Shown here: one piece after another, positions 548 to 34,006 of the stretch
How the letters are laid out: each line of letters begins with the position of its first letter
Position numbering within the stretch: position 1 is the first letter of the stretch
Virus record (IMG/VR): IMGVR_UViG_3300017903_001352
Location: 1 to 34,006 of that record
Source of the DNA: a virus
Lineage: Duplodnaviria > Caudoviricetes
DNA length: 34,006 nt
Direction: 5' to 3' (one strand)
Translations under genes and position numbers: made by a program
Notes under the pieces: model-generated
Database searches by the model: none
Seen by the model: the letters and a program-made list of their open reading frames with translations, nothing else
What the model was told of the DNA's origin: nothing

Positions 548-626
548 CCCGTCTAGCTTGGTAACTATACGGGTTCTTGTTATTGTTTATCTATACCGTA
601 TAAGTTGAAAGCTATACGGTTTTTTT
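548..626 (+). ncRNA. Candidate structured 3'-UTR RNA / attenuator (hairpin, U/G-rich seed, terminator)
   Basis: Hairpin CCCGTCTAG/CTATACGGG 548-573; linker 577-592 complementary to 32361-32376 and 32659-32672; terminator 595-626. Confidence 0.5.
595..626 (+). terminator. Intrinsic terminator before the portal gene
   Basis: ACCGTATA (595-602)/TATACGGT (613-620) stem followed by a T-run. Confidence 0.8.
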
Positions 627-682
627 ATGAGTTTCAAAAATTGTAAAAAATCGTTAAATTACTTGCAAACTAATCTTATGCT

Positions 683-2077
683 ATGAATCTATTAGACCTT
701 TTGCCTTTTAGCTCGGTCAAGGCCCCAAATACCCGTATAGTAAACGAATTAAATAAACAGTTATTTAGATTCCACCAGGGTCTACCGATCTCTATAGATG
801 ATACTCAAGGGGCTTACATTGATGAAGGTTACGAATTAAATCCCGACGTATATAGCGTGGTAAATGGTATAACTAAAGCCGGCGCCTCAGTTCCCCCTAT
901 TGTTCACGTAGTAAAAAATAAAACTAAAGCGCTAAAATATCAGCAATATAAAAGAGCTAACAAGTCAAAGGTAAACCAAGCATATCTAGACAATATACTA
1001 GAACTAAAAAACGAAGCTTTTGAAGAAGTCCACGACCATCGGGACCCGCTTTATAAGCTAATAAATAATCCTAATCCGTTACAAGGATATCCGGAGTGGT
1101 ATGAGAATATGAAGGGTTTTCAGCTTATCACGGGTAACGGTTACACTCACTTTGTAGAATTAGGCGACGGTACATTTGGTGAGATGTGGGTAATGCCGTC
1201 TCAGTTTACTAAGATAGTCGCTAACCCTACTTATGAGTCATTAATAGAGTCTTACTTGATTGATATGTATGGCCACGAGGGTAAAAAATTAGACGCTCAT
1301 ACTGTAATGCACTGGAAATATTGGAACCCCGACTACGACGCCGTAGGCTCGCACTTGTATGGTATGAGCCCGCTAAAGTCAGCACGCAGATCTATACGAC
1401 TAGGTAACGACGGGGACCAAGCATTAAGCAAGGCTCTAAAGAACGGAGGGGCCTCGGGTGTAGTATTTCCAAGCGATCCGGATATAGAACAATTAACGCC
1501 GGCGCAACGAAGTCAACTAGAACAGTATTTACGCTCTATGCAAGGGCCGGATAATTATAAGTCTTGGTTAGTATCTAGTGTAAAATTAGGGTTTGAGCGT
1601 TTTGGTATGCCACCCGTAGACCTAGAGATTATAGAGGCGGGTAAGATGACGCAAAGAGATATATGCAACGTATATAACTTTCCGAGTGAGTTATTAAACG
1701 ATCCGGATAATAAAACTAATGCCAATAAAGAGCAGTCTAGAAAGCAGTTATATCTTGACAATGTTATACCCGAACTTAACAGAGACTACGCCGAGTTAAA
1801 TCGTTCTTTGGTTCCGGTATTTAACAAAGCTACGGGAACAAATTATCATTTAGATTTTGATGTACAAAGTATTGACGCATTAAACCAGGATAACGCCGAT
1901 AAAGTTGCGTGGTTAGAACGGGCTTGGTGGCTTACCGCAGACGAGAAACGCTTAGAGATGGGTTACGAGCCCGTCGGGGACAATAATAGATATATACCGA
2001 TGAATCTTATACCGGACTCACAAACCGAGCTAACCGAAGAAGATCTAAAGACATTAAACAAAGAGTATGGAGCTTAA
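683..2077 (+). CDS. Phage portal protein, HK97 family
   Basis: 464 aa; NPDVYSVVNGI, LINNPNP, LITGNGY, LYGMSPL, ICNVYNFPSELL and WLTADEKR motifs typical of HK97-family portals. Confidence 0.95.
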   Translation: MNLLDLLPFSSVKAPNTRIVNELNKQLFRFHQGLPISIDDTQGAYIDEGYELNPDVYSVVNGITKAGASVPPIVHVVKNKTKALKYQQYKRANKSKVNQAYLDNILELKNEAFEEVHDHRDPLYKLINNPNPLQGYPEWYENMKGFQLITGNGYTHFVELGDGTFGEMWVMPSQFTKIVANPTYESLIESYLIDMYGHEGKKLDAHTVMHWKYWNPDYDAVGSHLYGMSPLKSARRSIRLGNDGDQALSKALKNGGASGVVFPSDPDIEQLTPAQRSQLEQYLRSMQGPDNYKSWLVSSVKLGFERFGMPPVDLEIIEAGKMTQRDICNVYNFPSELLNDPDNKTNANKEQSRKQLYLDNVIPELNRDYAELNRSLVPVFNKATGTNYHLDFDVQSIDALNQDNADKVAWLERAWWLTADEKRLEMGYEPVGDNNRYIPMNLIPDSQTELTEEDLKTLNKEYGA

Positions 2078-2432
2078 ATATTTTAGTCAATCAGATTTCG
2101 ACAAGTGCGATCCGCCTTGTAGTATTAATGATATGAACCAAGATTTTTTAAAAAAGCTAGACATAGCAAGGCTAATAGCTGAAGTACCCTTTATAATAAA
2201 TTCTGCTTATAGAAGTGAAGAGCACGAAAAAGCGCAAGGGAGAACCGGCACGAGTTCGCATACAAAAGGTTTAGCGGTAGATATAAAAAGTATCGACAGT
2301 AAGACTAGATATAAAATTATAAGTTCCTTAATTTCAGTTGGTATTACTAGAATCGGTATTGGCAAGAATTTTATACACGCTGATATAGATACAGATAAAT
2401 CGGAAAACGTAATATGGCACTATTATGGATAA
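2067..2432 (+). CDS. Endolysin, peptidase M15 family (Zn D-Ala-D-Ala carboxypeptidase-like)
   Basis: INSAYRS...SSHTKGLAVDI...FIHAD: SxHxxGxAxD and HxD Zn ligands. Confidence 0.9.
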   Translation: MELKYFSQSDFDKCDPPCSINDMNQDFLKKLDIARLIAEVPFIINSAYRSEEHEKAQGRTGTSSHTKGLAVDIKSIDSKTRYKIISSLISVGITRIGIGKNFIHADIDTDKSENVIWHYYG

Positions 2433-2688
2433 AGAACTAAACCAAGTAAAATTCGACATTAATAAACTAGAAGCTATGATTGAAGTGCTAGCAAAAGACG
2501 TACAAGAAATTAAGGAAGCTTTAGTAGGTAACGAGTTCGGTCAAGAGGGGCTAGTAAAAAAAGTTACTCAGAATACCGAACAAATAGCCGAACTACAAAA
2601 GTTTAAACAAAAAATTATAGCTTGGGCCACCGGTGCCGGTCTTGGCTCTAGTGCTTTATTTAATGCCATATCGGAGATGATGAAATGA
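2425..2688 (+). CDS. Coiled-coil protein with C-terminal hydrophobic segment (holin/XhlA-like lysis protein)
   Basis: Heptad-rich N-terminus, IIAWATGAGLGSSALF C-terminus, directly after the endolysin. Confidence 0.5.
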   Translation: MDKELNQVKFDINKLEAMIEVLAKDVQEIKEALVGNEFGQEGLVKKVTQNTEQIAELQKFKQKIIAWATGAGLGSSALFNAISEMMK

Positions 2689-2990
2689 AAAAACCACTAA
2701 AAGATCGAAAAATTGTACGTATCATACAACAAACTACCGCGGGAGAAAACAAAGCCGGGCAAATTTTACACGGGACTCTCGATATTTTACCGTTACCTAA
2801 TCAATTCTTGGGCAAAGCCGTTAAGGCTATTTTTGCGGGAGAATTTGAACAAACTAAGCAAGAACTTAAAAAGGCTTTTACGCTCCGCAACATTGTGGCT
2901 ATAATTTTTACCATAGCCTTAGTTATGGGTTGGATAGAGCCTAGTGATGTAGAGGAGTTTAGTAAAGCTCTAAACGAAGTAGATCTATAA
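2685..2990 (+). CDS. Membrane protein, putative holin/lysis accessory
   Basis: One TM segment (IVAIIFTIALVMGWI); ATGA-coupled to the previous gene in the lysis cassette. Confidence 0.45.
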   Translation: MKKPLKDRKIVRIIQQTTAGENKAGQILHGTLDILPLPNQFLGKAVKAIFAGEFEQTKQELKKAFTLRNIVAIIFTIALVMGWIEPSDVEEFSKALNEVDL

Positions 2991-3040
2991 GATTTTTGTT
3001 ATCGTATGCCCTAGGTCTTGAAACGGTCTAGGGTTTTTTT
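2991..3040 (+). ncRNA. Candidate 3'-UTR antisense RNA ending in an intrinsic terminator
   Basis: 2994-3011 TTTTGTTATCGTATGCCC is the exact reverse complement of 29464-29481. Confidence 0.6.
3009..3040 (+). terminator. Intrinsic terminator after the lysis cassette
   Basis: CCCTAG...CTAGGG stem followed by T7. Confidence 0.85.
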
Positions 3041-3043
3041 ATT

Positions 3044-3841
3044 ATGTCCGACTCTCTACAACAACATAAAAAGTATATGGAATGGAAGGCTATTGACAAT
3101 AAACGCCAAACATTCCAAAAATATGCCGAAAGAATCTTTTATAAGGCGATAAGAAAGCAGTTAAAACAATATACCGACGAGGCTAAGAAGTTAGATAGAA
3201 TAGATTTCGATCTAGACGGAGTAATAACTATTGAGCCTATATATGACGCATTTACAAAGGTATATAAAAGAGTATTAAGAGTGTTTGGTCAAGATACATA
3301 CACTAAGCTACAATCTACATTAAGAAAAGAGATTACAATTAATTGGGACGCACTTACGGAACAATGGTTAGGCGGTACTAATTGGCTAGATGGAGCAGAT
3401 ACTACGAGTAAAGTAGCTTTAGTTACTGAAACCACTAAGAAGGCGGTACGTAAAGCCGTACAACTTGCATTAATCGAGGGCACTAGCGTACAAGATTTTG
3501 CTAGGGAATTAAGTTATATGCCCGACTTTAGCTATAGAAGAGGTGTACTAATTGGTAGGACTGAAATTATAAGCGCTAGTAATGCCGGGTCTTTATTAGG
3601 AGCCCAGGCCTCGGGTGTAAAAACTAAAAAGGTGTGGCTCTCTACACAAGATAACAGAACAAGGCAAGACCATATATTAACAGATGGCCAAGTAGTAGAT
3701 AACCTAGACGGTATATTCTACGTTGGAGAAAATGAGGAACCTATGCAGTACCCGGGCGATTCAACGCTAGGCGCTAGCGCAAGTAATACGATAAATTGCA
3801 GATGTACGGTTACCTACGAACCTTATGATAATAATATTTAG
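3044..3841 (+). CDS. Head morphogenesis / minor capsid protein (Mu gpF / SPP1 gp7 family)
   Basis: IGRTEIISASNAG, KVWLSTQDNRTRQDH, MQYPGD, INCRCT signature. Confidence 0.9.
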   Translation: MSDSLQQHKKYMEWKAIDNKRQTFQKYAERIFYKAIRKQLKQYTDEAKKLDRIDFDLDGVITIEPIYDAFTKVYKRVLRVFGQDTYTKLQSTLRKEITINWDALTEQWLGGTNWLDGADTTSKVALVTETTKKAVRKAVQLALIEGTSVQDFARELSYMPDFSYRRGVLIGRTEIISASNAGSLLGAQASGVKTKKVWLSTQDNRTRQDHILTDGQVVDNLDGIFYVGENEEPMQYPGDSTLGASASNTINCRCTVTYEPYDNNI

Positions 3842-4469
3842 CTATAATAGGCCGGATATGTTGGGCAAAGTTATAGAACAATGTCCGACTAAACCGATAG
3901 TAATAGACGACGGTAGCGACTTCGACCCTATGCCATTCGCCAAAATAAGCGAGTTTCATAGATTAAGGCACAAAGGAAAAAAACAATATTTTTTGAATTG
4001 GCAATATGCTTTAAAATTATGCGCCGAAAGTAACGACGACTTTTTTTTATTTTTACCGGACGATTTTTTAAACATAGATTACAAGACTATCTCGTACCTA
4101 TACGAGAATTTATACGGGGAGTACGTATATAACTTACTTAACGATGGACGTCCTAAATGTTGGACCACGATAAGACACAGAGAAACCAATATAGCCGGGG
4201 TAGACTCTATAAAAGTTAGTTACGCCGACGGGGGTTACTTTACCAATCGAGAGACTTTAGAGGCGATAGGGTTCGAGCAAGATTTTATAGGGTTCAAAAG
4301 ATTCGAGCGCCCCGATATTTCTAGCGGAGTCGGTGAGACTCAAAGTATAAAATACTACGAGAATAGTATACCTATGTATTGCCCTAAAAAAAGCTTATGT
4401 TTTCACGGAAACCACGAGAGCAAAATGCACAAAGAACTAAGAAAAAAACAACCATTAATAAGCCTATGA
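3825..4469 (+). CDS. Glycosyltransferase, GT-A fold (GT2-like)
   Basis: IIIFSYNRP, IVIDDGSD, FLFLPDDF motifs. Confidence 0.8.
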   Translation: MIIIFSYNRPDMLGKVIEQCPTKPIVIDDGSDFDPMPFAKISEFHRLRHKGKKQYFLNWQYALKLCAESNDDFFLFLPDDFLNIDYKTISYLYENLYGEYVYNLLNDGRPKCWTTIRHRETNIAGVDSIKVSYADGGYFTNRETLEAIGFEQDFIGFKRFERPDISSGVGETQSIKYYENSIPMYCPKKSLCFHGNHESKMHKELRKKQPLISL

Positions 4470-4639
4470 ATAAATTAGGTATTATATCGGGTTTAGCTTG
4501 TTTAGCTTGGGCCTTGTTTTATGATTGGCAAATAGTTGGTATACTATTATTATTTTTTATAGCAACTAAGACCGACACCGTTATACTAATAGATCAAAAA
4601 ATAGAACTATTGGTCAACATAATAAGCAAAAAGTTATAA
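4466..4639 (+). CDS. Small membrane protein (about 57 aa)
   Basis: ATG at 4466 overlaps the upstream TGA (ATGA), so it is preferred over the 4397 start; two hydrophobic stretches (LGIISGLACLAWALFY, IVGILLLFFIA). Confidence 0.6.
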   Translation: MNKLGIISGLACLAWALFYDWQIVGILLLFFIATKTDTVILIDQKIELLVNIISKKL

Positions 4640-4642
4640 CTA

Positions 4643-5311
4643 TTGGTCATTACCGCAAACCTTGCCACTATTAAGGCCCGTAAGCATACCCTACAAGGCG
4701 TAATAGATAGCCTAAAAAATCAAGTTACCACCGTTAGGGTATATGGTAACGATTATACGCCGGAGGTAGAGGGGGACAATGTAGAAGTATATAGCGGGCC
4801 GGATTATACGGATAACGCTAAATTTTTTTGGCTACCGATTAGCAAGGGTCTTTATTTGTCGTGCGATGACGATATAATTTACCCCCCGGATTACGTGCAA
4901 AAGATTTTAGAGGCTAGAAAAAAGTACCCAAATACCTGGCTAACATTTCACGGGAGAAAATTAAAAGGACTAGGCTTAAATTACTATACCGAGCACATTA
5001 GTTATCAATGTCTAAAAAATGTAGACGGAGATTATCAAATAGATGTGCCAGGAACCGGGGTTAGCGCTTTCGATACTAGCTTAATAAAGTTTGACCCTTT
5101 ACGTTGGAAATATTATAAAATGAGCGATCTAATGGTAGGTTTAGAGTTAGCTAAGGTTAATGCTAGAGTTATTTGCTTAGAACATAAAGAGGGTTGGATA
5201 AAAAGCGCAAAAAGCTATTCACGGGAGGCAATACACCGCAAGGAAATGAAAAACAACACTCAAAACGAAATAGCTAACTCTATCTATTTACTTTGTTCCA
5301 ATAGAGCATAG
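4643..5311 (+). CDS. Glycosyltransferase, GT-A fold
   Basis: ANLATIKAR...LSCDDDIIYPPDYV DxD motif, PGTGVSAF, MSDL; TTG start. Confidence 0.8.
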   Translation: MVITANLATIKARKHTLQGVIDSLKNQVTTVRVYGNDYTPEVEGDNVEVYSGPDYTDNAKFFWLPISKGLYLSCDDDIIYPPDYVQKILEARKKYPNTWLTFHGRKLKGLGLNYYTEHISYQCLKNVDGDYQIDVPGTGVSAFDTSLIKFDPLRWKYYKMSDLMVGLELAKVNARVICLEHKEGWIKSAKSYSREAIHRKEMKNNTQNEIANSIYLLCSNRA

Positions 5312-5399
5312 CAAACATTAATAGCGTTCTTATATCGGATTTATCTACGGCCCAATTATTTTGTAATTGCTCCGTAACTCTGTTAAATAATTTTTCCAT
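5280..5399 (-). CDS. Putative 39-aa minus-strand protein (below the ORF-track cutoff)
   Basis: MEKLFNRVTEQLQNNWAVDKSDIRTLLMFAMLYWNKVNR*; A-rich AAATAACTATT before ATG; fills the otherwise empty gap before the protease gene. Confidence 0.45.
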   Translation of the reverse strand: MEKLFNRVTEQLQNNWAVDKSDIRTLLMFAMLYWNKVNR

Positions 5400-5482
5400 A
5401 ATAGTTATTTAAATTATTTAAATGTAATTATTTACATTGTAAAATGATGTAAAAAATTTGTATTTTGTAACAAAGTGTAAAT

Positions 5483-6760
5483 ATGAGTTATACCGATTAT
5501 CCACAAAGTGCAACGAATAACGCTAAACGAGCTTTAAAGTATCGTGAGGAGTCCGGCAACCCTAAAGGATGCGGTACCCCGGTAGGATGGAGGCGAGCGA
5601 ATCAATTAGCAAATAGAGAGGCACTTAGTAAAGATACCGTAAAACGTATGGCATCTTTTAATAGACACCGACAAAACAAAGATGTACCATATAGCGAAGG
5701 TTGCGGGGGGCTTATGTGGGATTGTTGGGGAGGCACTTCCGGCATTGATTGGGCTATCAGAAAATCTAAAGAAATAGACGGGGATAAAATGTTAAAAGAA
5801 GAAAGCTTAAAAGTCGGCGACTTTGTAACGTGGAACTCCTCGGGGGGTAGAGCAAGGGGTAAAATAACCAGGATTATAAGAGAGGGCTCTGTAAATGTTC
5901 CCGATTCTTCTATAACCCTAAACGCGGAACCGGACGACCCCGTAGCACTTATAAGAATTTATAGAGACAACGAACCAACGGATAGAATAGTAGGCCACAA
6001 ATTAAGCACTTTAAGAAAAACAAACGCCAAAGATATGAACTTACCTTGGATTACTAAAGATACTAACGCTACTATAAAGGGCGTAGATATGGACCGTAGG
6101 ATAATAGAGGGCTATTATTCTGTTTTTGATTTTAAAGACTCCGACGGCGACGTTATGGTAAAGGGTTGCTACGAAAAAACCATAAAAGAGAACGGACCCA
6201 ATGGAAGTAATAGAATAGTACACCTATATCAACACGATCCGCTACAAGTATTAGGCCGGCCAATGGCTTTATTAGAGGATGAGAAGGGTTTGTACTTTAG
6301 AACAATGATAGCCGATACTACTCTAGGTACTGACGTATTAAAATTATATAGAGACGGCGTATTAAAAGAGCACTCCGTAGGTATAAACTTTATACAACGA
6401 GACTACGATAGTCAAAGCGATTGTTATATGGTAAAAGAGTGTAAGATGTGGGAAGGCTCTACAGTTACTTGGGGAGCTAACGAGCTAAGTATAGGCGGTT
6501 TAGCTAAGGGTGTAAAAAGAGATTTAATAGACCAATATAAAGACCTCTCTAAAGCGTTTCATACGGGAGATTATACCGATGAGACTTTTAGACTTATAGA
6601 GGCGCAAATTAAACATATAGAGCAAACGTTAAAAAATTCACTTCATAATGAAGAGCCGGCTCTAGCCACTCAAAAGGACGAAGCCGAATTAGTTCGCGAT
6701 GTGTTTAATAAGTTCAATCAATCATTAAACTTTGAAAAGGAGTTCAAAAAATGGATTTAG
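5483..6760 (+). CDS. HK97-family prohead protease with two extra N-terminal domains
   Basis: C-terminal half IIEGYYSVF..DSDGD, HLYQHD, GLYF, HSVG, WEGSTVTWGAN; middle domain LKVGDFVTWNSSGG...VGHK resembles DUF2945/Hva1-Tudor. Confidence 0.9.
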   Translation: MSYTDYPQSATNNAKRALKYREESGNPKGCGTPVGWRRANQLANREALSKDTVKRMASFNRHRQNKDVPYSEGCGGLMWDCWGGTSGIDWAIRKSKEIDGDKMLKEESLKVGDFVTWNSSGGRARGKITRIIREGSVNVPDSSITLNAEPDDPVALIRIYRDNEPTDRIVGHKLSTLRKTNAKDMNLPWITKDTNATIKGVDMDRRIIEGYYSVFDFKDSDGDVMVKGCYEKTIKENGPNGSNRIVHLYQHDPLQVLGRPMALLEDEKGLYFRTMIADTTLGTDVLKLYRDGVLKEHSVGINFIQRDYDSQSDCYMVKECKMWEGSTVTWGANELSIGGLAKGVKRDLIDQYKDLSKAFHTGDYTDETFRLIEAQIKHIEQTLKNSLHNEEPALATQKDEAELVRDVFNKFNQSLNFEKEFKKWI

Positions 6761-7965
6761 AAAAAACTTTATCCGAGGGGCTAGAGTCAGTAAAAGGACA
6801 CGTAGATACCCTAAAGAATGACCTCGAAGCTCGTTACGACAAGCTACAAGAGGAAGTAAAAAACGCCGGTGTAGCTGATGAGGCTACTAAGAGCGAAATT
6901 AAAAACCTAGAAGAAATTATTGCCTCTCAAAAAGAGCGTTTAGAAGCTATTGAGAAAAACGGTAATAGACTAGGTGCTAACGGTGAGTCTGTTTCTATGA
7001 AGTCTCAAGTACAAGAAGCCCTAGAAGGGAAAGGCGTACAAGATCAAATAGATGCCTTTAAAGCGGGTCAAATTTCCGGCTTTACTATGGACACCAAAGC
7101 GGTTATTACTGCGGGAGATGCTTATACTAACGATGTCGTACCGGCTGACTATGTTGCTGGCTTTAAGTATGACGCGGATCGTAAAGTACACGTTAGACAG
7201 TTCTTACCAAATGGTACAACTAATAGCGACAAAATCCGTTACATTAAAGAGAGTAGCTTTACCGACAACACCGGCGTAACTGCTGAAGGTAATGCTTCCG
7301 GTCAAAACGACTTTGATTTAACTGCGACTGACGCCGTTGTAGAGAAAATTAGCGCTCATTTCCGAGTGTCTAAAGAAGCTCTAAATGATACTGCCGGTCT
7401 AGCTTCTCATATCTCTCTAAGAGGTATGGAAAAGTATATGCTACAAGAAGATTCGTACTTACTATATGATTCTACTTATGGCCTTACTATAACTTCTACT
7501 GATTATACTCTAGACTCTTACACCGGCGACGCTGATGCTCAAGAGCACGATGTATTATTAGAAGCTATTAAGCAAGTAGAAAACCGTAACTTTAGACCAA
7601 GTGCTATTATGATGTCTATAAGTCGCTTCTATGATATGATTCGTAGAAAAGACGCCGACGGAAATTATATTTTCCCTACAGACGTAGTATTTGGCCAACG
7701 AGTACCGGTAGTACGTGGCGTACCTATCGTAGCTACTAACGCTATCAACGCTAACGACTTCTTAGTCGCTGACTTCCCACAATTAACTACTCTTTTCGAT
7801 CGTGAGTCTATGCAAGTTCGTTTCTACGAGCAAGACCAAGACAACGCAATTAAAGACCTAGTTACAGTACAGATTAGTGGACGTCTAGCGTTACCTACTT
7901 ACTTACCTAATGCGGGTGCTTTCGGTAGCTTTGCTACTGCGATTACTAACGCGGGTAACTCTTAA
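6751..7965 (+). CDS. Major capsid protein, HK97 fold
   Basis: 404 aa; coiled-coil delta domain then AEG, KISAHFRVSKEALND, KDADGNYIF, VRGVPIV motifs. Confidence 0.95.
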   Translation: MDLEKTLSEGLESVKGHVDTLKNDLEARYDKLQEEVKNAGVADEATKSEIKNLEEIIASQKERLEAIEKNGNRLGANGESVSMKSQVQEALEGKGVQDQIDAFKAGQISGFTMDTKAVITAGDAYTNDVVPADYVAGFKYDADRKVHVRQFLPNGTTNSDKIRYIKESSFTDNTGVTAEGNASGQNDFDLTATDAVVEKISAHFRVSKEALNDTAGLASHISLRGMEKYMLQEDSYLLYDSTYGLTITSTDYTLDSYTGDADAQEHDVLLEAIKQVENRNFRPSAIMMSISRFYDMIRRKDADGNYIFPTDVVFGQRVPVVRGVPIVATNAINANDFLVADFPQLTTLFDRESMQVRFYEQDQDNAIKDLVTVQISGRLALPTYLPNAGAFGSFATAITNAGNS

Positions 7966-8023
7966 TAACTAAGAGTAAGGAGCTTTGGAACTTGGGGCGG
8001 TTCGATTCCGCCCGTTCCTCTTA
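7958..8023 (+). ncRNA. Structured element with tRNA-like T-arm downstream of the capsid gene
   Basis: GGAAC-TTG-GGGCGG-TTCGATT-CCGCCC-GTTCC (7987-8018), plus hairpin ACTCTTA/TAAGAGT (7958-7976) over the stop codon. Confidence 0.55.
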
Positions 8024-8039
8024 ATTTAATTTTATTGTT

Positions 8040-8916: not shown

Positions 8917-8919
8917 TGA

Positions 8920-24580: not shown

Positions 24581-24581
24581 T

Positions 24582-26181: not shown

Positions 26182-26182
26182 T

Positions 26183-26404
26183 ATGTTGTCAGACTTTAGG
26201 ATATTTGCCCAGGTTACAAAAAACGGGGTAGTATATTCGGTACACGAAGTTTTTTACAAAGACGAAGAGCCCTACGATTTTATTTACCTACCTCTTGTTA
26301 TGATAAGCCTAGACGAAGAAGATCTAAAAGCAGAGTTAAGACTTACTCTAGAAGCTTGGTCTAAGCCAATATTAAGCCTTGATAACTTCCCTAACGAGTA
26401 TTAA
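26183..26404 (+). CDS. Hypothetical protein
   Basis: 73 aa with a YSVHEVFY motif, directly after the phosphoesterase. Confidence 0.65.
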   Translation: MLSDFRIFAQVTKNGVVYSVHEVFYKDEEPYDFIYLPLVMISLDEEDLKAELRLTLEAWSKPILSLDNFPNEY

Positions 26405-26434
26405 AAAACCCCTAACCAAATTAATGGCTAGGGG
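26403..26434 (-). terminator. Minus-strand intrinsic terminator
   Basis: Minus strand reads CCCCTAGCCA-TTAATT-TGGTTAGGGG-TTTTTT; the G.U pair and U-tract work only on the minus strand. Confidence 0.8.
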
Positions 26435-26475
26435 ACGGAGTGAACACAGAATACATCAAATACAATAAACAACAA
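26403..26475 (-). ncRNA. Candidate ~70-nt independently transcribed sRNA
   Basis: Bounded by a TATATTTG box (26478-26485, minus) and the minus-strand terminator; no ORF recognised; U/G-rich body. Confidence 0.55.
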
Positions 26476-26477
26476 AA

Positions 26478-26485
26478 CAAATATA
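26478..26485 (-). promoter_or_regulatory. Bacteroidota-type -7 promoter element TAnnTTTG
   Basis: Minus strand TCGT-TATATTTG, divergent from the early promoter at 26519. Confidence 0.5.
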
Positions 26486-26518
26486 ACGAAAAGAGGTACA
26501 AAAAAAATTTAAAATAAA

Positions 26519-26547
26519 TTTGGTATTAATAAAATTATACCTATATT
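26519..26547 (+). promoter_or_regulatory. Early promoter of the recombination/replication operon
   Basis: A-tract UP region, TTTG-19 nt-TATATT, then AACGATAACAAAC; same layout as 32326 and 33213. Confidence 0.65.
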
Positions 26548-26585
26548 ATTGTTAGCTAACGATAACAAACCTAAAAGGATAACAA

Positions 26586-26747
26586 ATGCAAACAGTAATG
26601 AAGATACTAGCTTATGTATGTACTATAGTTTTTCTCTTTTTTCTTATGGCAGAAGGTGAGACTATAAAACACATATTAATACAATTTGTAATTATAACGA
26701 TAACCGGAACATACCTTGTATATTATGCCAATAGAAGAACCGTATAA
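26586..26747 (+). CDS. Small two-TM membrane protein (53 aa), not in the ORF track
   Basis: MQTVMKILAYVCTIVFLFFLMAEGETIKHILIQFVIITITGTYLVYYANRRTV*; first ORF after the promoter. Confidence 0.65.
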   Translation: MQTVMKILAYVCTIVFLFFLMAEGETIKHILIQFVIITITGTYLVYYANRRTV

Positions 26748-27680: not shown

Positions 27681-28063
27681 AGTTTAAAAGATATTTCAGA
27701 GTATCAAAAGGCAACACCGTTAAGGCCTGGAGGTTAGAGGTTAGAGATTACCTTACCTCTTTGCCCGACGGTAATTATTCTATAACAATAGAGGAGGCCT
27801 CTAAAGATAACAGAAGCATTTTACAAAATAGGCTTTATTGGAAGTGGCTAGAGATTATAGGCGAGGACCTCGGTTATATGCCAAAAGAATTACACGAAGA
27901 ATTTATAGAACTATACGCGCCGGTCTATACACTTAGGGGCTTAGACGGCAAACCAAAACAAAAACCAATAAGAACGAGTAAGATGGACGTAAACCAAATG
28001 GCTAAGTATATGGAGGCTATTACTATTTTTTGCTCACAACATAACATACGATTACCATTATGA
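27677..28063 (+). CDS. ninB: NinB/Orf-family recombination mediator
   Basis: RSILQNRLYWKWL, ELHE, TSKMDVNQMAKYME. Confidence 0.8.
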   Translation: MKFKRYFRVSKGNTVKAWRLEVRDYLTSLPDGNYSITIEEASKDNRSILQNRLYWKWLEIIGEDLGYMPKELHEEFIELYAPVYTLRGLDGKPKQKPIRTSKMDVNQMAKYMEAITIFCSQHNIRLPL

Positions 28064-28257
28064 AACCTAAACAAGAACTAGAAGAGTTACGGGAATGGCT
28101 ACAAAAGCAAAGCGTAAACGAAATATCCTTTGACATACGTGTACCGGCGCCTAGACTCAGAGCATTTAAAAACGGGGCTTCTAAAGACCCTAGTTATACA
28201 ACCATTAGAAAACTACAAGAATGGAAACTAAAACCTAAGAGCAATGGAAATAATTAA
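28060..28257 (+). CDS. XRE/Cro-like HTH regulator
   Basis: VNEISFDIRVPAPRLRAFKNGASKDPSYTTIRKL. Confidence 0.7.
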   Translation: MKPKQELEELREWLQKQSVNEISFDIRVPAPRLRAFKNGASKDPSYTTIRKLQEWKLKPKSNGNN

Positions 28258-28405
28258 ACTTATATTTGATGCTATTGATCTAGTAGCTAAAATATTAGGA
28301 TTTATAGCTCTATATGCAATAGCGATAGCGCTAACAGATTGGAGACACTTAAACAAAAACAAACTAAAAAACTATGAAGATAACACAAGCACAACAAGTA
28401 CTTAA
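28244..28405 (+). CDS. Small membrane protein (53 aa), not in the ORF track
   Basis: MEIIKLIFDAIDLVAKILGFIALYAIAIALTDW...; fills the gap between the two HTH genes. Confidence 0.6.
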   Translation: MEIIKLIFDAIDLVAKILGFIALYAIAIALTDWRHLNKNKLKNYEDNTSTTST

Positions 28406-28589
28406 ACATATTAGATACTATGGAAAAATAAGCTCTTTAGATGCTTTCCAAGAGTATGGAATTACTAGGCTTTCGGCCGTTATACATAAATTAAAAAAAC
28501 AAGGCCTAAATATAACGGCGGAGACAAAAGTTACAACTACACGACTAGGCAATAAAACTAATTACGCTGAATATAAATTAACAAATTAA
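28374..28589 (+). CDS. Winged HTH protein (HTH_39-like)
   Basis: TQAQQVLKH...ISSLDAFQEYGITRLSAVIHKLKKQGLNI. Confidence 0.8.
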   Translation: MKITQAQQVLKHIRYYGKISSLDAFQEYGITRLSAVIHKLKKQGLNITAETKVTTTRLGNKTNYAEYKLTN

Positions 28590-29011
28590 TGGGACTACAA
28601 AATAGTAAAAATCTTTCATCAGCTAAAAAGACTTGCGACGAGTGGTTTAGCCGTTACATAAGAATAAGGGACGCTAACGCAAATGGATTATGCAAATGCG
28701 TTACTTGTGATACGGTAAAGCCCTGGCGTGAGATGGACTGCGGGCATTTCCAAAGCCGTAGATATATTGCTACTAGATGGCTAGAGCAAAATGCTCACGC
28801 TCAATGTCAATCGTGTAATAAATACCAGGCCGGAGAACAATATAAACACGGAAGAGCTATAAACGATTTTTATGGAGAAGGGACGGCGGAGTATATTGCA
28901 TACTCTTCTAGAGCTTTGCATAAAATGAACAAACAAGAAGTAATGGAACTAGCAAGATATTTTAAACAAGAAACCGAAACCCTAGCAAAGGAAAAAAATT
29001 TAGAAATATGA
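28589..29011 (+). CDS. ninG: NinG/Rap-family endonuclease
   Basis: FSRYIRIRD, CVTC, DCGHF.SR, NAHAQCQSCN. Confidence 0.92.
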   Translation: MGLQNSKNLSSAKKTCDEWFSRYIRIRDANANGLCKCVTCDTVKPWREMDCGHFQSRRYIATRWLEQNAHAQCQSCNKYQAGEQYKHGRAINDFYGEGTAEYIAYSSRALHKMNKQEVMELARYFKQETETLAKEKNLEI

Positions 29012-29412
29012 ATAAAGTTATTTTAATAGGAAGGCTTGGCAAAGACCCCGAGTTACGTATGACGCAAACTAATATGCCGGTGGTAAATTTTAGTCTAGCA
29101 ACTTCTTCAAAGTACAAAGGAGAGGAACAAACAGAGTGGCATAATATAGTTTGTTTTAATAAGACCGCAGAAATAGCCGAAAAATATCTAAATAAAGGCG
29201 CGTTAGTAGCAATAGACGGAAAAATAAAGACGTCAAGTTATGAGAAAGACGGGCGTACTATTTATAGAACAGATATTCTTTGTAACAGTTTAGATATGTT
29301 AGGCAGTAAAGATAGTAGCACTAACAAAGATAAGCCCGTAGAAGCTAAAAACGGCGCTCAAAAGGTAACAAATATAGATCTAAGCACAATAGACGACGAG
29401 TTACCATTTTAG
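29008..29412 (+). CDS. ssb: Single-stranded DNA-binding protein
   Basis: MNKVILIGRLGKDPE, TEWHNIV, C-terminal DDELPF. Confidence 0.97.
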   Translation: MNKVILIGRLGKDPELRMTQTNMPVVNFSLATSSKYKGEEQTEWHNIVCFNKTAEIAEKYLNKGALVAIDGKIKTSSYEKDGRTIYRTDILCNSLDMLGSKDSSTNKDKPVEAKNGAQKVTNIDLSTIDDELPF

Positions 29413-29454
29413 AATAATTTTTTCTACATTAATCAAAACATTAACGCCGGTCTA

Positions 29455-29538
29455 TTTGTCCGTGGGCATACGATAACAAAAGACTAACAAATACGGGGGA
29501 TGTTTGACGTTATGCCCAACGTTGAGCGTTCCCTTTTT
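29455..29538 (+). promoter_or_regulatory. Structured leader/attenuator of the replication initiator gene
   Basis: Hairpin with loop GGGCAT (29464-29469) and a 16-bp G.U-rich hairpin with loop ATGCCC (29512-29517) followed by TTTTT, ending 4 nt before ATG 29543. Confidence 0.7.
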
Positions 29539-29542
29539 ATTT

Positions 29543-30202
29543 ATGAAAGGTTGGATAAGTTTACATAGGAGCATAGAAGAACATTGGTTATATCCTAAAG
29601 GGCGCGAGTTTACAAAATATGAAGCCTGGATAGATATACTCTTACAAGTGAATCACGCAGAAAAAAAAGTAATGATAAAGGACGAGCTTTTTTTGTGTAA
29701 ACGTGGGGACTCTGTAAGGTCTTTAAAGGAGTGGGGCAAGCGTTGGGGATGGAGCCGTAATAAAGTTAGAAGGTTTTTAGAACTGTTAGAAAAAGATTCG
29801 ATGATTGTACTAAGACCCGACACAAAAACGACACACCTAACAGTATGCAATTACGACACTTACCAGGTAGCGCGGAACAGTAACGGACATCAGACGGACA
29901 CCGCACGGACATCAGACGGACATCAGACGGACACAAACAATAACGTAAATAACTATAACAATGTAAACAATGTAAATAAGACGCCGACTATAGATTTAGT
30001 AATAAATTATTTTAAGGAGAGTGGTGTTATATCTAAAAAGGATATAAAAGCAGAGTCTAGAAGATTTATGGCCTACTATGAAGAGATGAATTGGAAAAAA
30101 AATAATATCCCAATAAATTGGATAAATAGAGCCGGTAGGTGGGAGACTACATACACAGAATTTAAATTACGAGATGAACGCAAACATCAAAACCCATTTT
30201 AA
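29543..30202 (+). CDS. Replication initiator / replisome organiser (lambda O-analogous)
   Basis: MKGWISLHRSI..HW, AWIDILL..NH, RWGWSRNKVRRFL..LE, LTVCNYDTYQ; internal iterons; ATG 29543 preferred over TTG 29504. Confidence 0.85.
   Translation: MKGWISLHRSIEEHWLYPKGREFTKYEAWIDILLQVNHAEKKVMIKDELFLCKRGDSVRSLKEWGKRWGWSRNKVRRFLELLEKDSMIVLRPDTKTTHLTVCNYDTYQVARNSNGHQTDTARTSDGHQTDTNNNVNNYNNVNNVNKTPTIDLVINYFKESGVISKKDIKAESRRFMAYYEEMNWKKNNIPINWINRAGRWETTYTEFKLRDERKHQNPF
29883..29937 (+). repeat. Five tandem 11-bp iterons (ACGGACAtcag), probable replication origin
   Basis: ACGGACA at 29883, 29894, 29905, 29916, 29927, followed by an A-rich tract to about 29980. Confidence 0.85.
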
Positions 30203-30204
30203 TT

Positions 30205-30744
30205 ATGAGTACAGTATACACAAAGAAAGAAGTAAGCAAATGTATAGAGCTAGGATTAAACTACGAGTACGATAAAGATCTATTAAATCTTTTGTATCAG
30301 TTTCACATAGATATAGGAGCTACTAAAGACTTACCGGAGGAAAGGAATACGCTAAAAAAATACCTGGTACGACTACACGAAACTATAACACTATACAATA
30401 GATTATATCCCGACGACGTTGCTTTTACCGTTATTTATGGCGATTGGATGCTAGCAGTAGTATATGAAGAGGTAAAAAGGTATGGTAATAATATATCAGC
30501 ATTAGCAAAGTGCTTTAATGATTGGTATAAGATAAATGCAGACAAATATATTAAAAGTACGGCGCCAACAAATAACTATAAGTCTAGAAATATCAAGGAC
30601 TTTACTAATGTGGAGATAGCAAGATTATACGAAACTGTTGATATGCTTAATAATGGCGATAGTATAGGGGGCCTATTCAATACCGGAGGGGCTAAAAGTT
30701 TTTTTAAAAGATTAAAGCAAGAATACGAGACTAGATTTAATTAA
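30205..30744 (+). CDS. Hypothetical protein in the helicase-loader position
   Basis: 179 aa directly after the initiator; no Walker motif seen. Confidence 0.55.
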   Translation: MSTVYTKKEVSKCIELGLNYEYDKDLLNLLYQFHIDIGATKDLPEERNTLKKYLVRLHETITLYNRLYPDDVAFTVIYGDWMLAVVYEEVKRYGNNISALAKCFNDWYKINADKYIKSTAPTNNYKSRNIKDFTNVEIARLYETVDMLNNGDSIGGLFNTGGAKSFFKRLKQEYETRFN

Positions 30745-30767
30745 TTAATTTTTATTAAATTGTTTAT

Positions 30768-31043
30768 ATGGCAGACGGTAGAAAAAATAACGGAGGACAT
30801 TCCACAAAAGGCAGAGCCGGGCGAAAGCCTAAAGCCAAGGAGATAGCTATGCTAGAGGCTATGGATGCTACACTAGCGCCGGTAGAGGTGTGGAAGAGAC
30901 TAGCCGATAGAGTTAATGACGGATCCGATACGGCTATTAAAACCTGGTTATCGTACAGATATGGCCAACCAAAGCAAAGCGTAGACCATACAACCGACGG
31001 CGATAAGATAGAGAGCGTAACGGTACGGATAATTGAGCCATAA
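30768..31043 (+). CDS. terS: Terminase small subunit
   Basis: DGRKNNGG...AGRKPK...YRYGQPKQSVD; immediately upstream of terL. Confidence 0.75.
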   Translation: MADGRKNNGGHSTKGRAGRKPKAKEIAMLEAMDATLAPVEVWKRLADRVNDGSDTAIKTWLSYRYGQPKQSVDHTTDGDKIESVTVRIIEP

Positions 31044-32220
31044 CCTAGACGCTACAAAGTTATACTCTATTACGTGGAACTCTAAAAAGCCTTACGTAGT
31101 CCACCAAGGGGGAACGTCTAGCGGTAAGACTTACGCTATCCTACAAGTCCTTATAATGAAAGCTAGCACGACGCCGGGCCTTGTTATAACAGTAGTGGGC
31201 CAAGATATACCTAACTTACGTGTAGGAGCCTACCGGGACGCTCAAAATATCTTATATAACGACGCTTTTTTTACCCAGGAACTAAAAGACCATAATAAGA
31301 GTAATAGGGTGTTTACTTTTCGTAGTGGGTCTAAAATAGAATTTAACTCATATAACGACGAGATAGACGCGCGGAGTGGTAAGCGTACTCATAGCTTTTT
31401 TAACGAGGCTAACGGTATAGACTTTGGGATATTTGAGCAAATCAGTATGAGGACTACCGAGCAAACTATTATAGACTTTAACCCGTCGGCTAGGTTTTGG
31501 GCTCACGATGTTTTACAAGGTCGATCCGATGTAGATTGGTTTGTTTCTACCTTTCGGGATAACGCATTTATACAACCCTCGATAAGAGAGAAAATATTAA
31601 GCTACGAACCAACTCCGGAAAATGTAAAAAGAGGCACGTCTAACGAGTTTCGTTGGATGGTGTACGGACTTGGTGAGGTTGGTAGACTAGAAGGCTTAGT
31701 ATTCCCTAATTTTGAATTATCAAACGAATGGCCCAATAATTATAAATGGAGGGTATACGGGCTCGATTGGGGTTATACTAACGATCCGACGGCGCTAGTA
31801 GAAATACGGTACTCCGAGGGCTCTCTATATTGGAGGCAACATATATACCGTAAGAGGCTTACAAATCAAAGTATAGCCCGCCTTATAGAGGATATAGGTA
31901 TAGAAGAGGAAATAATAGCTGATAGCGCCGAGCCTAAGAGTATAGCCGAGCTACGTAATAATGGCTTATGGGTCCGGCCCGCTAAAAAGGGTAAGGACTC
32001 GGTACTATTTGGCATTCAGTTACTGCAAGACTACCCGATAAAAATATACTCACAAAGCAAAGACCTTATAGAGGAGTTTAGTAGTTACACGTGGGCAAAA
32101 GATCGGAGCGGTAGCCCAACTAATAAACCTATAGACGACTTTAACCACGGTATAGACGCCGGACGTTACGCGATAATGGATAAAATGAAGAAGAAAACTA
32201 TAGATATTTCCTTAGTGTAA
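31033..32220 (+). CDS. terL: Terminase large subunit (PBSX/SPP1 type)
   Basis: QGGTSSGKT Walker A, FFNEA Walker B, DFNP, GLDWGYTNDP, ADSAEPKSI, NHGIDAGRY. Confidence 0.96.
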   Translation: MSHNLDATKLYSITWNSKKPYVVHQGGTSSGKTYAILQVLIMKASTTPGLVITVVGQDIPNLRVGAYRDAQNILYNDAFFTQELKDHNKSNRVFTFRSGSKIEFNSYNDEIDARSGKRTHSFFNEANGIDFGIFEQISMRTTEQTIIDFNPSARFWAHDVLQGRSDVDWFVSTFRDNAFIQPSIREKILSYEPTPENVKRGTSNEFRWMVYGLGEVGRLEGLVFPNFELSNEWPNNYKWRVYGLDWGYTNDPTALVEIRYSEGSLYWRQHIYRKRLTNQSIARLIEDIGIEEEIIADSAEPKSIAELRNNGLWVRPAKKGKDSVLFGIQLLQDYPIKIYSQSKDLIEEFSSYTWAKDRSGSPTNKPIDDFNHGIDAGRYAIMDKMKKKTIDISLV

Positions 32221-32325
32221 ATAACCAGGAACGCCCGTTCCTAAAAAAAAATTAAAAAAAAATATGGGTCTACATACCCAAAAAGGGCTATTTTATAATA
32301 AATAAAAAATAATTTAAAAATTTAT

Positions 32326-32354
32326 TTGCATTGAATGTAGGAATGCCGTATCAT
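32326..32354 (+). promoter_or_regulatory. Strong early promoter
   Basis: TTGCAT-17-TATCAT with upstream A-tracts; also readable as TTTG-20-TAnn. Confidence 0.75.
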
Positions 32355-32389
32355 TAAGTAAGATAAACGATAACAAAACACCTAAAAAA

Positions 32390-32662
32390 ATGAAATTCAA
32401 ATACGTACACGCCGTCGAGTATTATAATATCAAAACCCGGGATTATTCTTTTTCTCGTTATTTCTCTTCAGAAAAAAAAGCCAAAAAAGATATAACAGAA
32501 ACAGTAAAACCTTATGGTATAGAGCCAAAATTTACATATTTACCCGTTTCGGACCTTACCTATATAACAGACCAAAATGCCTCGCAATTTTATAGAAATA
32601 TAGAGTACCGAAAAGACAGAACTTGCTATCCCGTAGCCATAATTAAAAAAATAGTAGAATAA
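32390..32662 (+). CDS. Hypothetical early protein
   Basis: 90-aa ORF after the promoter and leader motif. Confidence 0.7.
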   Translation: MKFKYVHAVEYYNIKTRDYSFSRYFSSEKKAKKDITETVKPYGIEPKFTYLPVSDLTYITDQNASQFYRNIEYRKDRTCYPVAIIKKIVE

Positions 32663-32676
32663 ACAATAACAAAACC

Positions 32677-32699
32677 GGGAGGCCTTAAGGTCTCCCTTT
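32677..32699 (+). terminator. Weak terminator / processing hairpin
   Basis: GGGAGGCC-TTAA-GGTCTCCC-TTT. Confidence 0.65.
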
Positions 32700-32714
32700 A
32701 ATGGAGAAAAACAA

Positions 32715-33155
32715 ATGACAAAGCAAGATATAAGAGACGAAATTAAAAGACTAGAACAAAAAAAACAGAATAGTACCCTTATAGATAAGAGTAGCTACGA
32801 CCGAGATATAGAACACCTAAAAAGACGTATTCCATTCGAGACAATGAGAGACGATCTAGTAGGTAAATATATTAATAGATGTCTTTGGACTGATGCTTAC
32901 CCGGTCGGTAAGATTGTAGATATTAAAGGCAAGGATACGGTTTTTATTCAGCCCGTAGTAGCCGGAGAGAATAAAACTAAAATGGATTTTATTCCTGGCG
33001 GATTCGGCGCACATTGTACTAACAACAGAGAGCAAAGTTACGACTTCGAGGAAGCCGGCGAAGTATTTAAGGAACGTCTAACATTCTCTAAGTTAGAAAA
33101 ATATTCTTGGTACATACACGACGCGCCTAGCAAGCATTACGATTATAACTTTTAA
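32715..33155 (+). CDS. Hypothetical early protein
   Basis: 146 aa; FIPGGFGAHCTN and C-terminal HYDYNF. Confidence 0.75.
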   Translation: MTKQDIRDEIKRLEQKKQNSTLIDKSSYDRDIEHLKRRIPFETMRDDLVGKYINRCLWTDAYPVGKIVDIKGKDTVFIQPVVAGENKTKMDFIPGGFGAHCTNNREQSYDFEEAGEVFKERLTFSKLEKYSWYIHDAPSKHYDYNF

Positions 33156-33163
33156 TATTAAAC

Positions 33164-33192
33164 GGGGAGCGTAAAAAACTCCCCCTTTTTTT
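33164..33192 (+). terminator. Intrinsic terminator
   Basis: GGGGAG...CTCCCC followed by C and T7. Confidence 0.8.
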
Positions 33193-33212
33193 AAAAATAA
33201 TTAAAAAAATAT

Positions 33213-33241
33213 TTGCATTGTATTATAAATGTGTGTATATT
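33213..33241 (+). promoter_or_regulatory. Strong early promoter
   Basis: TTGCAT-17-TATATT with the same upstream AAAAATAATT..AAAA.ATTTGCATTG context as 32326. Confidence 0.75.
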
Positions 33242-33279
33242 ACTTGTGAATTAAGAAACGATAACAAAACACAAGAACA

Positions 33280-33483
33280 ATGACACACATACAAACAACT
33301 CACAAGACAATAAACAAACAAGTAATTAAAAGCCTTGCACAAATGTGCCCAAGCGCCGTAAGACGTAGCAAAGTAAAAAGCGATCTATACAACAAAATAG
33401 TTTACGTATACGACGCAGAAGGCAATAGCTTAGGTTGGGCGGTAAAGGCTCCACAACAAGAAGTAAAAATAACCATTAAATAA
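33280..33483 (+). CDS. Hypothetical early protein
   Basis: 67-aa ORF after the promoter and leader motif. Confidence 0.65.
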   Translation: MTHIQTTHKTINKQVIKSLAQMCPSAVRRSKVKSDLYNKIVYVYDAEGNSLGWAVKAPQQEVKITIK

Positions 33484-33487
33484 TAAC

Positions 33488-33504
33488 GGGGCTTCGGCCC
33501 CCTT
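33488..33504 (+). terminator. UUCG hairpin (weak terminator / processing site)
   Basis: GGGGC-TTCG-GCCCC; poor U-tract. Confidence 0.6.
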
Positions 33505-33521
33505 ACTTAAACGATAACAAA

Positions 33522-33785
33522 ATGACAAAACGTAAAAGATACACAAGCGCAAATTTCTACCCGGTAGGCGATGTAGATTTATGCAATGTTGAATACGATT
33601 TAATAGCAGATCTACAAATAATGAGCAGAGAAAGCTTTTGGAAAAACGAACTACATAACGAGGACCATCCGGACTTTCTTAGAAAATATAGCACAGAGGT
33701 ACCCGAGTATATGATACTGTATATAGTCGAAAGACTAGAAGAGTATTGGAAAATACTTTATCCCGAGCGGTACGAAGAACAATAA
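33522..33785 (+). CDS. Hypothetical early protein
   Basis: 87 aa, preceded by AAACGATAACAAA. Confidence 0.7.
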   Translation: MTKRKRYTSANFYPVGDVDLCNVEYDLIADLQIMSRESFWKNELHNEDHPDFLRKYSTEVPEYMILYIVERLEEYWKILYPERYEEQ

Positions 33786-33795
33786 ACAACAACCC

Positions 33796-33816
33796 GGGGG
33801 CTTCGGCCCCCCTTTT
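33796..33816 (+). terminator. UUCG hairpin terminator
   Basis: GGGGGC-TTCG-GCCCCC-C-TTTT; near copy of 33488. Confidence 0.7.
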
Positions 33817-33830
33817 AAAACAAAAATACT

Positions 33831-34006
33831 ATGAACGGAATATTAAGAACAATAAACTGCGAAGATTACAAAAAAGAACCAATAACATATTACGAGATGG
33901 ATATTAAGTTCCAAGCTCCTTATAATAACTATACTTACTTTAGCCTAGAGGGTGAAAGTAAACAAGGCTTTATAGATCGAATTACATACGAGATAAAAAA
34001 AATGTA
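33831..34006 (+). CDS. Hypothetical early protein (58 aa); stop completed across the window ends
   Basis: MNGILRTINCEDYKKEP...YEIKKM then TA at the window end; base 1 (A) completes TAA. Confidence 0.7.
   Translation, partial: MNGILRTINCEDYKKEPITYYEMDIKFQAPYNNYTYFSLEGESKQGFIDRITYEIKKM

Follow-up and report, generated by a model that had tools for sequence, protein, structure and literature searches.

The phage genome analyzed here, IMG/VR record IMGVR_UViG_3300017903_001352 (34,006 nucleotides; Duplodnaviria, Caudoviricetes), carries two short segments, A and B, that are complementary to a sequence tag shared by its early-gene leaders and start regions. We call the whole stretch the window and its phage W. 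Comparison with related phages suggests that A and B are probably trans-acting antisense seeds that would repress early translation: they adjoin terminators, complement the tag, and change with it from lineage to lineage. Their complementarity, terminator position, covariation and frequent inclusion of an anti-AUG are direct observations. An original prediction, made from the window alone, had proposed a circuit of four antisense RNAs (A to D), each aimed at its own remote early or replication site. All four matches are present in the window. A and B behave as trans seeds against early transcripts, but C is no guide, and the layout is one or two seeds against a tag shared by many genes instead of one guide for one remote site.

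Seeds, tag and covariation in related phages

The tag common to the targets of A and B in W is ACGATAACAA. In its motif form, ACRATAACAA, it occurs six times in sense orientation, in early leaders and start regions, and twice in antisense, at A and at B. A reversed-pattern control gave 3 + 2 matches in W, so the raw tag count alone is no proof. A pairs over 16 bp, including one G.U, with positions 32361-32376 and at 14 of 14 positions with 32659-32672, and B pairs at 18 of 18 positions with 29464-29481; the final 3 nt of seed B fall inside the stem of terminator B. Duplexes of the W seeds with tag-bearing starts were predicted at -11 to -21 kcal/mol, compared to a mean near -8 kcal/mol over 17 late-gene starts, among which the best value was -14.7, with A.

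Shuffled controls were less generous to single matches. Exact inverted matches of at least 14 nt in W numbered 6 against 4.0 expected (100 local dinucleotide shuffles), and those of at least 18 nt numbered 1 against 0.05, the 18/18 match of B being reached in 5 of the 100 shuffles. One-bulge matches of at least 17 numbered 5 against 1.35 expected (20 shuffles). By these counts, A and C taken singly are not above chance and B is borderline (about 5%). W-only matches are mostly chance-level. The case for A and B is made by the comparative data.

Relatives were collected by portal scans, which returned partly overlapping sets of 62, 61 and 37 loci; those compared with W are given L-numbers (L001 etc.). 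Because our terminator finder demands a TGA loop, loop conservation was taken from the raw sequences instead. In the pre-portal terminator of the relatives, the UGA-containing loop is constant while the preceding 15-25 nt vary. Apart from L052, whose portal is 55% identical, and L003, which is truncated, all distinct pre-portal sequences examined have this UGA-loop hairpin. The varying 15-25 nt are the reverse complement of the early-gene tag that the same lineage carries beside its start codons. Besides that of W, the tags identified by eye were AACAATACA in L001, CTACAGA in L005, L008, L021 and L023, ACTAAG in L015 and L056, GGATAACAAAA in L029 and L032, and GATACAATG in L036. Where the upstream gene changes from a helix-turn-helix (HTH) gene to terL, the seed stays with the terminator, and tag orientation follows the direction of transcription, inverted modules included. 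In the lineage of L004, L005 and L009, a second UGA-loop hairpin occupies the place of the 548-573 hairpin of W.

Covariation was scored as the longest Watson-Crick run of a seed against early start regions. For seed A in 13 lineages, cognate runs were 8.5 compared to 7.2 for non-cognate runs, a result equaled in 0 of 200,000 permutations. Nine of the 13 seeds exceeded their own shuffles at <=0.04, and the controls, late-gene start regions and same-sense matches, remained at background level. A G.U-aware test was performed on 11 portal-tree clades, with 59 loci collapsed to 23 distinct seeds; L092, whose terminator was mis-called (its portal is the same as that of L025), was left out. Across all 72 choices of representatives, seed A gave 9.6 for cognate and 8.2 for non-cognate pairs (p at most 1e-4). 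Disjoint pair contrasts were positive in five of six cases and zero in one, and seed A of W, with one G.U allowed, placed its cognate at rank 1 of 23. Support for seed B was weaker: six of seven lineages exceeded shuffles, with a permutation value of 124/5040 (p = 0.025). An anti-AUG (CAT) is contained in 17 of 24 A seeds, compared to 8.3 expected (kinship uncorrected), at variable spacing. Compensatory change between seed and target, which the original prediction called for, is seen among portal relatives for A and more weakly for B, but the target of C was found in 0 of 51 related loci. The proposed ranking of A as weaker than C is reversed, with A strong comparatively and C unsupported.

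These comparisons bear on whether the matches reflect composition. U-rich pre-terminator sequence could meet the A-rich start regions of Bacteroidota by chance, leaving only the terminators with their UGA loop (perhaps the site of an antitermination protein) functional. Such an artefact agrees with the high non-cognate background (8.2 nt), with energy scans that fail to single out targets in most relatives, and with single-genome matches that are mostly chance-level. However, it can neither make cognate matches exceed non-cognate ones in 11 clades (p at most 1e-4) nor explain why seeds exceed their own shuffles and why late-gene starts match only at background level. The cognate test largely refutes this explanation, and we consider it very unlikely.

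Several observations do weigh against antisense seeds. The failures of seed A are L025, L043, L045 and, by strict Watson-Crick scoring, W; L100 and L142 ranked poorly in the G.U-aware test, and seed B fails in L032. The anti-AUG is absent from the seeds of W itself. RNAduplex scans ranked the predicted sites at the top in W only, with cognate starts mostly outside the top five in the other eight of nine loci. G.U exceeded A.C mismatches by 9 to 4 (p = 0.13), and 23 further mismatches were transversions. The high non-cognate background (8.2) arises because U-rich seeds meet A-rich starts anyway. The seeds are predicted to be only moderately open, with mean unpaired probabilities of 0.63 for A, 0.48 for B and a median of 0.55 over 25 seeds, and the final bases of B are predicted to be paired in its own terminator. 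Some UGA-loop hairpins (L117, L156 and L045) also lack an evident seed.

These seedless hairpins lie in leftward early leaders (L117 near 1937, L156 near 613 and L045 near 1427, all on the minus strand). The UGA loop may also serve a separate function, e.g. in antitermination. The L025, L039 and L033-L047 lineages lack the seed B site, and a pattern scan for further B-type terminators returned only one locus, on a contig already in the set. In L025, a UGA-loop terminator elsewhere (830-900) has a 12-nt match across its own AUG, a post hoc find. It is a stand-alone element in a divergent promoter region before a probable rep gene, and its seed matches the AAATGGAT starts of that lineage. Seed B at L032:12330-12385 (also in L029, L030, L031 and L094) fits the tag of L015/L056 and the leader loop of L056, not its own early genes; a mosaic relic, chance and cross-lineage targeting are candidate explanations.

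The main rival to antisense pairing takes the tag as a double-stranded DNA operator for a phage HTH protein (219-539, 28-219 or 28060-28257), with A and B as inverted copies and covariation as protein co-evolution. W encodes four HTH genes, and each of its three early promoter-like sites, which consist of TTTG, 19-20 nt and TA.. elements, is followed by the tag at a distance of 10-25 nt. The reverse of the W tag also contains TTATC, as in DnaA boxes, which we count in favor of an operator, and the G.U bias is not significant. An operator leaves the strand polarity and the anti-AUG unexplained, however. Pre-gene copies always follow the direction of transcription, antisense copies occur only against terminators, and the anti-AUG is kept at variable spacing. 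Promoter-less copies are found right at start codons (33511), and the L036/L042 clade shows the match though no homologue of 219-539 was found within its 10-kb flanks (contigs incomplete). We consider an operator unlikely.

A and B could also be by-products of cassette shuffling, i.e. inverted hairpin-tag-ATG junctions (PeSL-like modules or relics of leftward micro-genes) without a pairing function. Read on the minus strand, both resemble such junctions; the early modules are mosaics of repeated junctions, and D is a same-strand repeat of this kind. Two features argue otherwise. The A and B hairpins have UGA loops, while the tallied intercistronic early hairpins have UUCG loops (one hairpin census, too strict for UGA-loop stems, was applied to UUCG loops only). 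In addition, a fixed position with a sequence updated to the current tag is unlike a relic. We consider shuffling quite unlikely as an account of A and B. Leftward micro-genes behind A and B were rejected, as the reverse frames after the anti-AUG span 2-58 codons and are unrelated between lineages.

The replication-initiator leader

The proposed target of B lies in the leader of the replication-initiator gene, which folds into two hairpins with complementary loops. The second hairpin ends in a U-run that immediately precedes the ATG, from which the tag copy lies about 65 nt away. Alignment of starts with relatives indicates that ATG 29543 is likely the true initiator start. Besides W, this kissing-loop leader is present in L001, L004, L005, L009, L036, L056, L117 and L156. 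It occurs in seven sequence versions, and in all seven the cognate loop was the best partner (permutation 1/5040). The initiator-leader target named by the original prediction is thus part of a real structured switch. In lineages without the leader, ssb abuts rep or other genes lie between them.

At its seed/stem junction, B of W, L005 and L009 copies the loop of hairpin 2 and thereby complements the loop of hairpin 1. The match of B to its own leader loop covers 8 nt in W (p = 0.0004), 6 nt in L005 (p = 0.012) and 6 nt in L009 (p = 0.019), with a permutation value of 5/120, and in L004 the B-leader pairing is retained via a G.U. Sequence differences between the close relatives L133, L134 and L116 concentrate at this junction. 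L116 and L133, 92% identical over portal-holin and 68% in rep, differ at exactly the B junction. The B-leader duplex was predicted at about -30 kcal/mol.

Other results count against this link. It holds in three of five lineages and fails in L001 and L056, and the B of L032 matches a foreign leader loop over 8 nt. The L009 match hinges on one A-to-G change, itself wobble-neutral within the stem of B, and the leader target of B is predicted to be only 39% unpaired. From these sequence matches, we put the chances that B controls the initiator leader via its loop at about even. By analogy with ColIb-P9 repZ, blocked loop pairing would be expected to lower initiator synthesis. A simple attenuation model, in which a P1 helix opposes the terminator and B flips the balance, was not supported. 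In pseudoknot-free nearest-neighbour folding, the two-hairpin fold was preferred with or without B (-33.4 compared to -21.1 kcal/mol for forced P1).

The position of the leader tag is relevant to one further explanation, in which pairing is real but acts differently, through cleavage or termination at tags 5' of hairpins or through competition with a tag-binding activator or antiterminator. Besides the rep-leader copy about 65 nt from its ATG, tags are found right after promoters and before UUCG hairpins (32663 and 33780 in W); in relatives, 8 of the 18 UUCG hairpins inspected have an ATAACAA-type stretch before them. Most lineage tags nevertheless lie directly against the start codon, and the AUG is spanned by 17 of 24 seeds. 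An effect of this kind therefore seems unlikely to us, and repression at translation initiation is retained as the probable role of A and B.

Elements C and D and the genomic setting

Element C follows the major capsid gene and pairs with 33906-33922 over 17 bp with one bulge. In an alignment of 15 loci, 94.9% of cells were paired, 5 of 13 pairs showed two-sided change, and 0 of 500 shuffles equaled this pairing. Relatives with as little as 50% capsid identity, some of them lacking element A, also carry C behind the capsid gene, and the seed part of C (the 5' half of the element) is nearly invariant across relatives. Element C had no Rfam match, and ARAGORN reported 0 genes. A cloverleaf with an anticodon arm or a tag reading frame was not found in C; only the acceptor-like stem and T-arm are supported. 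In L064, a different UUCG hairpin occupies the C position. C was rejected as a guide RNA, being a near-invariant cis element with its target in 0 of 51 loci and a match size expected by chance. It is instead probably a tRNA-like processing or stability signal, separate from A and B.

D had been described as antisense to 33779-33792. The 14/14 match is present, but it is an identical plus-strand direct repeat and would be antisense only if 26462-26475 were transcribed leftward. The D hairpin has a U-run on the minus strand only, such that its terminator works only leftward in W, and its -7-like box is perfect. D-type leftward terminators were found in 4 of 11 distinct regions, with a homologous hairpin only in L005, L084 and L116. 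When the D stretch was compared with early junctions of its own clade, 0 of 150 shuffles in L084 and 2 of 150 in L133 scored as high, while W and L116 both gave p = 0.11. In one sub-lineage, D may represent a third RNA, of a stand-alone kind; a same-strand relic explains it equally well.

The W record is linear and 94% complete. All 48 open reading frames (ORFs) accepted as genes lie on the plus strand, and these include portal, MuF-like, protease, HK97-type capsid, tail, Erf, NinB, NinG, SSB, DnaD-like initiator and TerL genes. No integrase or CI-type repressor was found among the 48 ORFs of this linear, 94% complete record. This agrees with the original prediction, which saw no recognisable CI-type repressor, but the premise that RNA replaces protein regulators is weak, because W encodes a Cro-like pair, a winged HTH protein and a DnaA-domain-IV-like HTH protein (four HTH genes in all). 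The small Cro-like genes (28-219 and 28060-28257) are homologous, 33% identical and undetected by Pfam and PHROGs; Atlas look-alikes are HTH_3/HTH_26 at 0.94-0.95 (a lead only). The 219-539 protein is a candidate late activator, or the protein that would bind the rival operator. A late-promoter-like motif (TGT, 6 nt, YTGTTAAWTT-like) lies at 642-660 before the portal gene, also in close relatives, and a similar motif lies at 5448-5466 before the protease gene. Both are candidate sites for the DnaA-C-like HTH protein. A long AT-rich intergenic region with nested inverted repeats (5311-5483) also precedes the protease gene.

The early promoter-like sites of W are close to the -33/-7 consensus described in PMC6847099. 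Together with the named relatives, they point to a Bacteroidota host. The best-named relatives of TerL are from Phocaeicola and Flavobacterium phages (35-37%). Among genome contigs, the capsid gene matched two from metagenome-assembled genomes (MAGs), at 65% and 52% identity, the latter a Roseivirgaceae MAG. We therefore infer the host rather than identify it. Early starts with a Shine-Dalgarno-like GGAG are common in L042, L043 and L045 (10 of 18 in L042 compared to 1 of 23 in L021), and that clade may have a different host group. In portal relatives, genes at the end of W usually come before those at its start. The early genes at 32240-34006 plus 1-539 form a promoter-plus-cassette block that is inserted between terL and portal and has contents highly variable among relatives; in the L033-L047 clade, terL immediately precedes portal. 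Upstream of an early promoter in L008 (880-1060) are tandem imperfect repeats of about 15 nt (GTTATTGTCAG/GTTAGCAG-like).

Table 1. Coordinates of features discussed in the text (window positions; CDS, coding sequence; UTR, untranslated region)
Positions	Strand	Feature	Basis or annotation
219..539	+	DnaA domain-IV-like HTH gene; seed A in its 3' UTR	Pfam Bac_DnaA_C, under the curated threshold both in W and in four relatives
548..573	+	Hairpin that precedes seed A; may be a 5' stem for protection or processing	RNAfold of 535-690
577..592	+	Seed A, putatively antisense to early start-region tag; 3' end of transcript ending in DnaA-C-like HTH gene
596..626	+	Intrinsic terminator A: UGAAA-loop hairpin and U-run, upstream of late-promoter-like site and portal
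2994..3011	+	Seed B, putatively antisense to tag; 18/18 to loop and 3' arm of rep-leader hairpin 1
3009..3040	+	Intrinsic terminator B: UGAAA-loop hairpin and U-run, between lysis genes and MuF-like gene
7977..8020	+	C, tRNA-like cis element: 7-bp acceptor-like stem stacked on T-arm (TTCGATT loop), GG-containing connector; after major capsid gene
26403..26485	-	D, uncertain leftward unit: TATATTTG -7-like box 26478-26485, U/G-rich stretch 26462-26475, hairpin 26409-26434
26519..26568	+	Early promoter-like site (TTTG ... TATATTAT), then tag copy 26559-26568
29449..29542	+	rep leader: hairpin 1 (loop near 29464-29469, 3' arm with tag) and terminator-like hairpin 2 (loop 29512-29517), complementary loops
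29543..30202	+	Replication initiator/DnaD-like gene behind leader	PHROG 2514, 186, 428
32325..32376	+	Early promoter-like site and tag copy 32367-32376, which ends 13 nt before ATG 32390
32659..32672	+	Tag variant at stop codon, immediately preceding a hairpin; proposed site for A
33212..33267	+	Early promoter-like site and tag copy 33258-33267, before ATG 33280
33511..33520	+	Tag copy after UUCG hairpin, directly before ATG 33522, without own promoter
33779..33792	+	Direct repeat of 26462-26475 before UUCG hairpin; proposed target of D
33906..33922	+	Proposed target of C, inside hypothetical CDS; judged chance match

Proposed mechanism and known systems

In the mechanism we propose, RNAs A and B would exist as mRNA 3' ends or as processed pieces of 40-80 nt protected by the terminator stem. 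The U-rich seed would pair with the A/C-rich region from -20 to +3. In F. johnsoniae, initiation is driven by adenines at -3, -6, -12 and -13 (PMC6847099). As the -20 to +3 region carries these initiation adenines in Bacteroidia, pairing would occlude the 30S subunit. A would end a unit read from early promoters, giving negative feedback from the early/middle unit. B would end the unit that runs from portal to the lysis genes and is read from the late-promoter-like site at 642, such that early genes could be shut off once late transcription starts. In some lineages, including W, B may copy the hairpin 2 loop, compete for hairpin 1 and thus jam the initiator kissing-loop switch. The conserved UGA loop is a probable binding site for a chaperone or phage protein. 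The existence, timing and sign of this regulation are what we infer from the sequence patterns above.

A broader and more speculative possibility is a re-writable RNA address code for the early-to-late switch. Lineage-specific tags would be read by UGA-loop 3'-end RNAs, and late B would serve as a trans kissing-loop mimic that shuts the rep leader. Replication would thereby stop in concert with the transcription of virion genes. Such a code could act between co-infecting relatives (cf. the B of L032). We hold this extension only tentatively.

To our knowledge, the timing of early-gene shut-off in small phages without a classic repressor is largely unknown, and the phage antisense RNAs known to us mostly have one target. 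For a tag regulon read by 3'-end RNAs, natural compensatory variants in a dozen lineages make seed/tag swaps directly testable. Bacteroidia ribosomes ignore Shine-Dalgarno sequences; if true, the present proposal would provide orthogonal translational switches for Bacteroidota. If B controls the kissing-loop leader, a trans regulator would be named for a class of phage rep leaders.

The closest likeness is to the FopS/GibS small RNAs of Bacteroides thetaiotaomicron. As described in PMC11697453, these are multi-copy RNAs with a single-stranded seed followed by an intrinsic terminator, which repress many targets at translation initiation regions; one member is 3'-end derived. A and B likewise have a seed followed by an intrinsic terminator, with the seed complementary to several translation initiation regions, and they share the multiple copies, the 3'-end member and the inferred host's phylum. 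FopS/GibS RNAs differ in being host-encoded, with a conserved seed and host polysaccharide utilization locus targets, whereas A and B are phage-encoded, have lineage-rewritten seeds and would target the phage's own genes. Rfam gave no match at E<=1 in the window except a sub-threshold SAM-V within a CDS, and none at gathering score in L025, L133 or L036.

In Salmonella, GcvB and the 3' UTR-derived DapZ use a G/U-rich seed against a C/A-rich translation enhancer shared by their regulon, and DapZ resembles A and B in sharing its terminator with the upstream mRNA (PMC8383071). GcvB and DapZ are enterobacterial Hfq-associated host RNAs aimed at host transporters, whereas A and B would be phage RNAs with phage targets.

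C4 of P1/P7 and CI of P4 are processed multi-stem RNAs located in the leader of the operon they control, where they serve lysogenic immunity. A and B resemble them as putative phage RNAs with short complementarity to their own lytic or replication transcripts and a specificity that varies between phages. They differ in that each of A and B consists of one seed and one terminator at a 3' end, lying kilobases away from many targets, in a phage where no integrase or CI was found. C4 is Rfam family RF01695, as listed in PMC2864571; no Rfam C4 match was found in the window, and A and B each form one hairpin at the 3' end of a gene rather than a multi-stem RNA in an operon leader.

The rep leader is most similar to the ColIb-P9 repZ (I-complex) switch, in which two leader hairpins have complementary loops and Inc (RNAI) is the antisense RNA (PMC8383071 and PMC10286972). 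The W leader likewise has complementary loops in two hairpins before rep, and an antisense on the first loop would block their pairing. In the I-complex as described there, the countertranscript Inc is encoded in cis, and the switch also requires a leader peptide, whereas the candidate blocker in W is a distant 3'-end RNA. Two further differences are that the U-run of hairpin 2 directly precedes the ATG in W and that B is linked to the leader in only three of five lineages.

Examples in the available portions of a 2025 review of phage small RNAs (PMC12197685) are mainly single-target or host-directed. In the literature searched, which covered few subscription papers, we found no phage 3'-end RNAs that covary with a start-region tag of the same phage. 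Compared to these systems, the new features here are two 3'-end seeds with a shared loop class, covariation seen in 11 clades, and a seed that is a candidate partner of a kissing-loop leader.

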